Assembly (NCBI GenBank): GCA_963668025.2 | Contig: CAXXTH010000010.1 | Coordinates: forward strand, 256,001-320,000 | DNA length: 64,000 nt | Origin: Candidatus Hydrogenedentota bacterium | Lineage (GTDB): Bacteria; Hydrogenedentota; Hydrogenedentia; Hydrogenedentales; SLHB01 | Direction: 5' to 3' | In this document: positions 28,280-30,414 of the stretch, one piece after another | Layout of the letters: every line of letters begins with the position of its first letter | Numbering within the stretch: position 1 is the first letter of the stretch | The notes under the pieces: generated by a model | Told to the model about the DNA's origin: nothing | The model's input: the letters and a program-made list of their open reading frames with translations, nothing else | Database searches by the model: none | Made by a program: the position numbers and the translations under genes

Positions 28280-28497
28280 AACTTAGGTGGTTCATTATTA
28301 CAGGCGAGAACGTTTCAAGATTGGATGTAGCACCACGAATGGATTTCCATCTTCCGTGGCATGGGCGTCCCGCCCATGCCTGGAGTTTCTACCTTTTTTG
28401 GGCGAGGTGGACACGCTTTTTCTCTTGCCATCGCACAGCTTATCGTCTTTGTCGTAGCTTCCCTTTCGCCGAATAGGCCGGTCATTTAAAATATATA

Positions 28498-28526
28498 TTG
28501 ACATACCGACTCGTTTGTGCTACAAT
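28498..28526 (+). promoter_or_regulatory. Sigma70 promoter inside the IS driving the HTH and transposase genes
   Basis: TTGACA (28498), 17 nt, TACAAT (28521), with a TGn extended -10. Confidence 0.75.
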
Positions 28527-28554
28527 CTTGTTGGCTAGGCAGGAGGGCGGCGCC

Positions 28555-28890
28555 ATGAATGACGAATTGCGTGACACGATCCTAGAGGCTATGGAAAAAG
28601 GGCTTGAGGCGCAGCTTCGGGCGGTGCGCCGTCTGCGTAGGGGGGAAGAATCCAGGGAGGAGCCACGACCCAGAACAAGTATGTCGCAAGTAGATATGGC
28701 ATATGACATACTCTTGAGGGCCGCTCATCCCCTTCATGTCAATGAGATCCTGAGTCGCATTCATGCGGTCTTCGGCATTACGGTGGACCGGGAAAGCCTG
28801 GTGTCTTCCCTCACCAAAAAGGTGGCTCGGGAAGACCGCTTTGTCCGCGCGGACAAGAACACCTTCGGACTCAAAGGAGGCAAGCGATGA
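28555..28890 (+). CDS. Winged-HTH accessory protein of the IS (HARE-HTH-like)
   Basis: AYDIL..AAHPLHVNEIL..SL.K...RFVR...NTFGL; AGGAGG RBS; ATGA overlap with the transposase. Confidence 0.75.
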   Translation: MNDELRDTILEAMEKGLEAQLRAVRRLRRGEESREEPRPRTSMSQVDMAYDILLRAAHPLHVNEILSRIHAVFGITVDRESLVSSLTKKVAREDRFVRADKNTFGLKGGKR

Positions 28891-30266
28891 GTCTTTTACA
28901 CGAATGGCTCAACGTTACCGAGCGCTGGCGCGATGCTTTTGCCCAAGAGCGCACCACCGTGCGTGCGGTGCGGCAGGGACTTGGGTCACTGGTCTGTTTG
29001 GGGCGGCGCACAATCACGCGGACCCTTTGGGCCTGTGGTCGCGAGAATCTGCCGTGGCAGGCTGAATACCACATGTACGGCCGCGCCAAGTGGGACCCCC
29101 AGCAGCTCTTCGACCCTATTTGGGAAGGAGCCCTGCCCCAGTGTGAAGACCCGCTTGTAGGCGTCGCCGTCGATGATACCAAGCTGCACAAGACCGGCCG
29201 GTGCATTGTCCAGGCTTTTCATCAGCGCGACCCCCTGTCCCCGCCGTTCCACACCAATCTCATTCTGGGCCTGCGTTTCCTGCAGGCCTCCCTTCTCGTA
29301 CCGCTTCACCAAGGCGGCGCCTTTAGTTGCCGCGCCTTGCCCGTGCGTTTCGAGGAGTCTTCCCCCGCCAAGAAGCCTGGCAAGCGCGCAAGCGAGGAGG
29401 AGTGGATGGCGTACAAGCAGCGCCGTAAAGAGAAGAACCTTTCAACCCATTGCGTGGCGATGATGGACTCCTTGCGCGCATCCCTCGACGCCGTCGGCGC
29501 CAGGGAGAAAACCTTGGTCATGGCCCTCGACGGCAGCTTTTGCAACCAGACCGTCTTCGGCGCTGAACGCGACCGCACCCACCTCATCGCCCGTGCCCGC
29601 AAGGACGCAGTCCTATGCTTTGGCGCTCCAGAGGGTTCGCGGCGTTTCTATGCCCAAGAAAAATTCACCCCCGAGCAAGTACGCCAGGACGATAGCATCC
29701 CCTGGAAGACTACGAAGCTATTCTACGGCGGCAAACGCCGCAAGGTCCGCTACAAGGAAATCAAGACCCTCTACTGGCAAGGCGGCGCGCGCCGTCTTCC
29801 CCTCCGCCTTTTCGCTATCGCTCCCACCCCCTACCGCAAGCGGAAAAGCAGTAAGCTTTATTACCGGCAACCAGCCTACCTTCTTTGTACCGACAGGGTT
29901 CACGCCGCACAGAGGCTGCTCCAGATCTACTTCGACCGCTGGCAGATTGAAGTCAACCATCGCGAGGAAAAGGACACCTTGGGCGTCGGACAAGCTCAGC
30001 TCTGGAACCCCAATGCCGTACCCAAGCAGCCCCCGCTTGCCATCGCCGCCTACAGCGCATTGCTACTGGCCGCCATAAAAACCTTTGGCCCCGAACGAAA
30101 TAGTGCATACGCCCCGCTGCCACGGTGGCGAAAACACGCCACACGCCCATCGTGCCTCGCTCTCATCACTCTATTGAGAAAAGAGATGGACGAACAGCCC
30201 CATTTGCTCCGTCCACTCGGCATAGAAACCTCCAGAGCAACAATGGCAAGCGCCGCGGCTGCTTAA
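28887..30266 (+). CDS. DDE transposase (IS701/IS4-like)
   Basis: VAVDDTKL, ALDGSF, YFDRWQIEVNHREEK (YREK-like motif). Confidence 0.9.
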   Translation: MSLLHEWLNVTERWRDAFAQERTTVRAVRQGLGSLVCLGRRTITRTLWACGRENLPWQAEYHMYGRAKWDPQQLFDPIWEGALPQCEDPLVGVAVDDTKLHKTGRCIVQAFHQRDPLSPPFHTNLILGLRFLQASLLVPLHQGGAFSCRALPVRFEESSPAKKPGKRASEEEWMAYKQRRKEKNLSTHCVAMMDSLRASLDAVGAREKTLVMALDGSFCNQTVFGAERDRTHLIARARKDAVLCFGAPEGSRRFYAQEKFTPEQVRQDDSIPWKTTKLFYGGKRRKVRYKEIKTLYWQGGARRLPLRLFAIAPTPYRKRKSSKLYYRQPAYLLCTDRVHAAQRLLQIYFDRWQIEVNHREEKDTLGVGQAQLWNPNAVPKQPPLAIAAYSALLLAAIKTFGPERNSAYAPLPRWRKHATRPSCLALITLLRKEMDEQPHLLRPLGIETSRATMASAAAA

Positions 30267-30324
30267 TAATGGAGAAACTCCAGGCATGGGCGTCCCGCCC
30301 ATGAACATGGCCGGGACGGCCATG

Positions 30325-30414
30325 CTACGGTTTGCCCGCCGCGATACGCCGGATCTCGGATTTCGTCAACGTGCGGTCGTAGATGCGGATATCGCGGATG
30401 CATATATCCCCTTT
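30325..30414 (-). pseudogene. C-terminal remnant of a LamG-like domain gene
   Basis: Translates KGDICIRDIRIYDRTLTKSEIRRIAAGKP*, resembling the LamG-type 'DxRIYDRALxxxEI' end motif. Confidence 0.45.

Follow-up and report, generated by a model that had tools for sequence, protein, structure and literature searches.

A stretch of 64,000 nucleotides from a Candidatus Hydrogenedentota bacterium (assembly GCA_963668025.2; hereafter the window, at positions 256001-320000 of contig CAXXTH010000010.1, here C10, in the genome designated G000) carries at 28380-30283 a two-gene insertion sequence (IS). Judged from its sequence, its copies and its relatives, this element is very probably an active member of the IS4/IS701 superfamily that would target stem-loops rather than a sequence and would duplicate the whole hairpin by attack on the 5' feet of a cruciform. 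After insertion a direct repeat of the entire stem-loop, with 0-2 nt to either side of it, is found at the two IS ends, and both copies of the hairpin stay intact. As it is the whole stem-loop that is duplicated, the length of the target site duplication (TSD) follows the length of the hairpin (17-32 bp). Besides repetitive extragenic palindromic sequences (REPs), hairpins of other kinds serve as targets, one of them the apparent subterminal hairpin of an IS200-like element.

Insertion site and structure of the element

Each end of the IS adjoins one copy of the 19-nt sequence catgggcgtcccgcccatg, at 28360-28378 and 30285-30303, and the two copies are identical at 19/19 positions. The sequence forms a hairpin with an 8-bp stem and a 3-nt loop (tcc), and because this asymmetric loop reads the same on both sides the repeat is direct and not inverted, which bears out an earlier note on this DNA that had described the flanking repeat (catgggcg-tcc-cgcccatg). 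With its flanking G and C the left copy forms a 9-bp stem (-11.5 kcal/mol), and 0/200 shuffles folded as well. The earlier note gave the TSD as 19 bp and placed the cuts at the hairpin bases; the duplication of the hairpin stands, but the TSD is 20-21 bp long (G-hairpin-C/A, with C at 28379 and A at 30304, 20/21 identical) and the cut sites lie 0-2 nt outside the perfect stem.

Removal of the IS and one repeat gives ccgtgg-hairpin-aa-inverted hairpin-ctacgg, which is the standard REP doublet of the window genome. Short-read contigs of four runs were aligned to the region 27600-31000, and those of run X7 span both IS junctions, so the assembly is confirmed there. The doublet at 30284-30330 also folds as one long imperfect hairpin, REPIN-like (-20.8 kcal/mol, z -6.8); duplicated at this site is the small single-REP hairpin and not the long doublet hairpin.

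In the window copy CCTGGAGTTTCT (28379-28390) and AGAAACTCCAGG (30273-30284) form a perfect 12-bp inverted repeat. The outermost base, however, differs (C, G or A) between copies in the window genome that are otherwise 99.6-100% identical, and at 14/15 junctions read by eye it is the natural REP-flanking base. The IS is therefore 1904 bp and not 1906 bp long, and the outermost C and G were rejected as IS bases. In related elements the TSD directly adjoins CTGGAG/CTCCAG. The IS proper is thus a two-gene DDE insertion sequence with 11-bp terminal inverted repeats, and the features of the element and its target site are as follows.

28354..28358, + strand: outer context of the REP doublet (ccgtg), which with the g at 28359 gives the GTGG tag at 28356-28359 of a GTAG-type REP
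28359..28379, + strand: left TSD copy, G + 19-nt stem-loop (28360-28378) + C, with the 9-bp stem fold
28380..30283, + strand: insertion sequence proper; four full genome copies besides interrupted and partial ones, ends kept in relatives
28380..28390, + strand: left terminal inverted repeat, CTGGAGTTTCT; relatives end in this 11-mer with no more than 1 mismatch
28498..28526, + strand: putative sigma-70-like promoter upstream of orfA, TTGACA-17-TACAAT, assigned by consensus match only (11/12)
28555..28890, + strand: orfA, 111 aa, with weak likeness to HARE-HTH and the RNA polymerase delta N-domain
28887..30266, + strand: orfB, 459-aa DDE transposase, with a DDE_5 match and a predicted Tn5 transposase fold
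30273..30283, + strand: right terminal inverted repeat, AGAAACTCCAG; 11-nt ends conserved in relatives
30284..30304, + strand: right TSD copy, G + 19-nt stem-loop (30285-30303) + A, 20/21 identical to the left copy
30306..30330, + strand: partner REP in inverted orientation, catggccgggacggccatg at 30306-30324 and then CTAC-gg, the GTAG tag on the other strand

The stop codon of orfA overlaps the start codon of orfB (ATGA). The likenesses of OrfA to Pfam PF05066 (HARE-HTH; E 1.1e-4) and TIGR04567 (E 2.5e-5) both fall below the cut-off, and the protein is kept in 76 of the 80 related loci described below, with 55-74% identity.

Hairpin-length target site duplications in related elements

A scan with OrfB of one genome per species gave 80 loci with 52-74% amino-acid identity, almost all of them in Acidobacteriota assemblies. 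Both ends and 45-nt flanks were present in 69, which are the analysable copies; the other 11 were without an end or sufficient flank. A TSD was defined as a repeat of at least 15 bp with at most 1 mismatch per 10 nt. By this rule a TSD, of 17-32 bp, is present in 46/69 copies, which come from 17 assemblies, and each of the 46 is one stem-loop whose stem measures 6-14 bp and whose loop measures 2-5 nt. As a control, a hairpin adjoins 67/1855 random positions in the same loci. The distribution of lengths (in bp, with number of copies) is 17 (1), 18 (1), 19 (4), 20 (10), 21 (5), 22 (15), 23 (4), 24 (1), 25 (2), 28 (1), 30 (1) and 32 (1).

The TSD is symmetric about the dyad of the hairpin in 45/46 relatives, exceeding the perfect hairpin by 0 nt in 17 copies, by 2 nt in 25 and by 4 nt in three, and falling 1 nt short of it in one. 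Hairpin length and TSD length are correlated (r=0.90, slope 0.91). The earlier note had asked if every TSD amounts to a hairpin and varies in length with it, and wherever a TSD was found among these relatives this is so; a short TSD at a plain non-palindromic site, which that note had named as the contrary outcome, was found in none of the 69. The 46 TSDs represent 42 distinct sequences that have no common motif beyond palindromy, and 42/46 are not self-complementary, so the direct orientation is real.

The complete chromosome of a member of the Bryobacterales has 23 copies, 18 of them with a TSD of 18-28 bp; in flanks read by eye the hairpin changes with each copy and each time stands as a direct repeat to either side of it. 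Two loci (L079:903-925 and L021:3008-3022) have isolated remnants of IS ends, ~15-20 nt long, at hairpins 100-130 nt from a full copy. Each insertion doubles its target, and insertions in clusters or in tandem, with the products of their decay, may therefore be frequent.

Proposed mechanism of hairpin duplication

In DDE chemistry the 3'-OH transposon ends join 5' phosphates of the target, and repair of the staggered gaps makes the TSD. The stagger here is a hairpin of whatever length and sequence, and it is dyad-symmetric, as is expected if each strand is attacked at the 5' foot of an extruded arm. In the mechanism proposed, the palindrome would be extruded as a cruciform, or captured in cruciform form by the transpososome, and the two IS 3'-OH ends would attack the 5' foot of the hairpin, one per strand. 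The two 5' feet would face each other across the four-way junction, about as far apart as in an ordinary short stagger. One hairpin arm would then be carried by each transferred strand and copied by gap repair, so that the entire stem-loop is duplicated. The 0-2 nt by which the TSD extends past the stem at either side would correspond to the enzyme's ordinary small stagger across the junction. The same geometry, in which 3' ends join the 5' feet of a cruciform and the stem-loop is duplicated, is drawn as the hypothetical pathway b in PMC5678879. The structure-directed, cruciform-base integration put forward in the earlier note is upheld as regards hairpin-directed insertion (46/69 relatives); the cruciform step itself we infer.

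The same outcome could also be reached if the structure recognised were not a supercoil-driven cruciform, the hairpin forming instead on DNA that is briefly single-stranded, at a replication fork or in a transcription bubble, or being opened by the transposase or OrfA. We consider this unlikely. The targets are indeed short GC-rich stems, 6-14 bp with loops of 2-5 nt, that extrude poorly in duplex DNA, and a DNA-binding-like OrfA accompanies the transposase in 76/80 loci; a dyad-symmetric direct duplication (45/46) nevertheless needs one attack per strand at equivalent feet, for which a two-armed cruciform is the simplest structure, and a hairpin on one strand gives no obvious direct repeat.

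Copies of the element and REPs in the window genome

BLAST searches of G000 with the IS found four full copies, with 99.7-100% identity, three more that are interrupted near position 200, six fragments and one diverged relative. By an automatic criterion, 16/19 IS ends adjoin a hairpin with a stem of at least 5 bp and 15/19 one with a stem of at least 7 bp, compared with 841/20,000 (4.2%) and 82/20,000 (0.41%) random positions of the genome, respectively. Nearly every IS end adjoins a hairpin, and this hairpin differs from copy to copy.

The three interrupted copies are broken inside orfA at the same CTAG by elements of ~1.2 kb (contig and positions C19:177849-179016, C24:18214-19381 and C10:251508-252735). 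Two of these inserts are identical, with the ends tgtattgatt.../...aatcaataca and a 4-bp CTAG repeat. Four of the IS fragments (C19:126949, C23:156762, C10:116853 and C19:229117) break at IS positions 1063-1069 and have 7 nt, TTCAACC, in common, which looks like the 7-bp duplication of another element followed by rearrangements.

Three main classes of REP were distinguished in G000.

Class of the window's REP: 147 copies, GT[AG]G directly 5' in 129
Swapped-pair variant of the window's class: 67 copies, GT[AG]G directly 5' in 61
Third family: 106 copies, GT[AG]G directly 5' in 101

The target in the window has the properties of a GTAG-type REP, being a short GC-rich palindrome with 147 copies, 129 of them tagged, 48 inverted doublets and Y1_Tnp genes in the genome that include single-copy-like ones of 166-170 aa. 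One of the three single-copy-like Y1 genes of G000, which are found besides ~9 identical IS200-like copies, is located in the window (PF01797, 57783-58124, ~166 aa, 74.9 bits) and could encode the REP-associated tyrosine transposase (RAYT) of one REP family.

Adjacent pairs of the window's hairpin class (at most 10 nt apart) are in opposite orientation in 48/48 cases and in the same orientation in none, so a pre-existing tandem pair around the IS would be without precedent. The intact REP doublet that the earlier note expected on excision of the IS conforms to this arrangement. Junctions in G000 read by eye fall into two classes of similar size, a GT[AG]G-tagged hairpin followed by the IS (7) and the IS followed by a hairpin without the tag (8), exactly the two that would be expected of a single insertion in which the hairpin is duplicated and the tag is not. 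Hairpins of the three main REP classes without any GTAG likeness on their 5' side, sorted by eye, were found solely beside IS ends.

These findings make it very improbable that nothing was duplicated and that the IS landed, with little or no TSD, between hairpins that were already neighbours in a REP cluster. In its favour, G000 has its REPs in clusters, and the hairpins at the two ends differ in 20/23 TSD-less relatives and in 3/4 full G000 copies; but the 0/48 same-orientation pairs and the confinement of tagless hairpins to IS ends speak against it, and it would need 46 pre-existing perfect tandem pairs in 17 assemblies, with 42 sequences, mostly non-self-complementary. Placement of the IS ends inside pre-existing REP triplets was rejected, given the opposite orientation of all 48 adjacent pairs.

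Sequence-directed targeting of REPs as in IS1397 or the IS110 family, with the long repeat as a by-product of fixed cuts in the REP consensus, has a similarly slight chance of being correct. It would fit the origin of most G000 targets in a few REP families with the GT[AG]G tag, but not the 42 distinct TSDs without a motif beyond palindromy, the variation of the TSD (17-32 bp) with stem length or the presence next to the TSD of a tag, GT[AG]G or C[CT]AC, in just 6/46 relatives. Nor does it fit one of the G000 targets, the hairpin ccacgtcc-aaa-ggacgtgg at the left end of a full copy (C23:398424). This hairpin occurs 14 times in G000, in the same long context in 13/14 cases and with a 3' context also common to 12, several of them beside partial Y1_Tnp matches, and is apparently located subterminally in an IS200/IS605-like element; the targets are consequently not REPs alone. 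The earlier note was thus right in taking REPs as targets, though not as the sole ones.

That the 19-mer forms long terminal repeats of the element itself, a possibility raised in the earlier note and suggested by its position at both ends of the window copy, can practically be dismissed: copies 99.6-100% identical are flanked by other hairpins, so the hairpin is not part of the element, the TSDs of relatives are distinct in 42/46 cases and the loop is direct, not inverted.

Mismatched flanks and empty sites

Several points weigh against the duplication of whole hairpins through a cruciform. An empty site was seen for none of the copies; the 40 related genomes are all from other genera and include no close relative, and their matches to the window locus are limited to the IS, REPs and the downstream gene, with 64-73% identity. 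No contig joins across the IS in the four short-read runs, X9-X11 covering the flanks partly. As there is no site seen both before and after insertion, the duplication is deduced from the repeats and was not itself observed. Moreover, short GC-rich palindromes are generally held to be unfavourable to extrude in unperturbed duplex DNA, and a cruciform is indistinguishable from single-strand hairpins or protein-forced extrusion on sequence alone.

A matching hairpin on both sides is present in 1/4 full copies in G000, the window copy, and in 0/3 interrupted copies, and 23/69 analysable relatives have no TSD. The hairpins at the two ends differ in 20 of these 23, and L020 and L035 retain a partial second hairpin copy. 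In 4/23 (L019, L048, L064 and L073) the flanks are reverse complements of each other with at most 2 mismatches in 20 nt; in L019 and L064 this extends over 28-29/30 nt. In all four the IS is at the centre of a long palindrome. Where the flanks differ, the best reading is that homologous recombination took place between near-identical IS copies, and recombination is also the sole account offered for the four with reverse-complement flanks, which would be recombinants. Mismatched flanks on this scale require frequent recombination between IS copies. The missing partner hairpin was found in some cases: L073 has in its left flank a 22-mer that recurs in the right flank of L068, and in G000 another is common to the left flank of the copy at C10:455514 and the right flank of that at C23:400328. 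Hybrid flanks from recombination between copies are described for ISRm22 (PMC1525189).

There are also 7 mismatches in 6/46 TSDs, four of them at terminal positions (L074, L077, L027 and L090), as is the C/A difference in the window (28379/30304). The terminal mismatches may represent an extra base at the junction or one brought along from the donor site, or may result from imprecise cleavage.

Transposase and its relationships

OrfB matches Pfam DDE_5 with 34 bits against a cut-off of 27. Its best NCBIfam model is NF049999 (IS701_3), with 133.8 bits against a cut-off of 170; NF033540 gives 38 against 150, and the IS4 models give 17-28 bits against cut-offs of 115-250. No IS1182-type model was among the Pfam and NCBIfam matches. 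A sequence search of the PDB gave no match, and the top five Foldseek matches of the AlphaFold model (pLDDT 77.5) are all Tn5 transposase (E 2.7e-9 to 1.1e-7, TM 0.46-0.49). The description of OrfB as an IS701/IS4-like transposase in the earlier note agrees with these results.

The candidate catalytic triad, D96/D97, D215 and E355, occupies invariant columns. A Y-R-E-K motif is present at Y348-R351-E355-K362, with the spacing Y-2-R-3-E-6-K read from the residue positions; over 32 sequences R351, E355 and K362 do not vary, and Y348 reaches at least 90% conservation. OrfB thus has the Tn5-like DDE fold and the YREK motif of the IS4 family, whose TSDs are about 8-13 bp, in contrast to the 17-32 bp found here. 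The TSDs of 46/69 relatives depart equally from the 4 (to 5) bp of the IS701 family, and Y348 is present where the variant IS701 motif usually has no tyrosine. As there is no 4-bp TSD, the tyrosine is present and there is a second conserved gene, the element is assigned to a clade of the IS4/IS701 superfamily and not to IS701 proper.

Among 8000 scored metagenome candidates there were 6046 homologs at E 1e-5 or better, nearly all of them unnamed. The closest named homolog, with 87% identity, comes from a Candidatus Hydrogenedentes metagenome-assembled genome, where its annotation is transposase, and most relatives with 61-67% identity are from Acidobacteriota; the transposase family seems to cross phyla. 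More distant members of the IS701_3 type occur as single copies, for which no ends could be established; L096 among them has a candidate 21-nt inverted repeat without an adjoining hairpin or clear TSD.

Comparison with known systems

The closest behaviour is that of IS1272/TnSha1 (IS1182 family) of staphylococci, a DDE IS that also seeks hairpins. For IS1182, ISfinder gives direct repeats (DR) of 0-60 bp, which would suggest that curators have met related cases. IS1272 picks hairpin-forming inverted repeats, in both orientations and without primary-sequence specificity, and a proposed model has a cruciform as its target (PMC4923244, PMC5678879). It deletes or replaces the stem-loop and leaves no TSD, with attack proposed at the 3' feet or by blunt cuts (PMC4923244, PMC5678879). 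In PMC5678879 duplication of a whole stem-loop figures as a hypothetical pathway only. The window element has in common with IS1272 the targeting of hairpins without sequence specificity (42 distinct hairpin TSDs in 46), a likeness of behaviour only; it duplicates and keeps the stem-loop, neither an IS1182-type transposase nor removal of the stem-loop without TSD was found, and the two transposases are unrelated at the family level.

The element resembles the IS701 family in its nearest curated models (DDE_5 and IS701_3), its terminal inverted repeats and its IS4-superfamily, Tn5-like fold. IS701 elements have a TSD of exactly 4 bp and most lack the YREK motif's tyrosine (PMC2266710), and TSDs of 4-9 bp are given for the IS701 elements ISGka1/2 (PMC8024623). 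The window element differs in the 17-32 bp TSDs of its clade, its full Y-R-E-K motif, its second conserved open reading frame and its IS701_3 score below the cut-off.

REPs as landing sites are also known from ISPsy8, ISPa11, ISPpu9/10, ISRm22 and ISRm19, and the earlier note named IS1397 (IS3 family) and IS621 (IS110 family) as further cases. Some of these insert at the symmetry axis, and the REP is broken at one fixed position with direct repeats of 0-6 bp (PMC1525189). Members of the IS110 family carry out RNA-guided recombination (PMC11208160). The window element, by contrast with the REP-targeting IS, leaves the REP unbroken, its recognition is independent of sequence and it targets many unrelated hairpin families, with neither a fixed position in a REP consensus nor a DR of 0-6 bp.

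Long direct repeats of variable length occur in the IS4-related IS1634, and we know of no tie between these repeats and hairpins. For the IS1634 family as a whole, AT-rich TSDs of 5-6 bp are given (PMC2266710). Duplication of a whole hairpin by an IS701-like element was not found in the literature searches, whose scope lay outside ISfinder and TnPedia.

Biological implications

Accounts of target choice usually give DDE transposases a weak preference for sequence and a fixed stagger (2-13 bp). In the present case the secondary structure of the target itself sets the stagger, at 17-32 bp over 46 independent insertions, which provides a clean natural data set for structure-directed integration and complements IS1272, the one known hairpin-seeking IS, with the opposite outcome. 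If the wider clade of these transposases reads the shape of DNA, it would be the natural counterpart, so far drawn only as a hypothesis, of the hairpin-deleting IS1272, and each insertion would be a fossil record of palindrome extrusion in vivo. The finding also opens to direct test the old question of whether short REP palindromes are extruded in living cells.

For annotation, the finding is a warning that long palindromic 'terminal repeats' around members of this family are target duplications and not element ends. It also explains how such an IS can multiply in gene-dense genomes without disrupting genes or losing the target REP or terminator. On balance we favour, with some reserve, the broader view that the element represents a widespread IS4/IS701-superfamily clade, with homologs in metagenomes numbering more than 6000, that reads the shape of DNA and for which any stable stem-loop is a safe landing site, duplicated whole.

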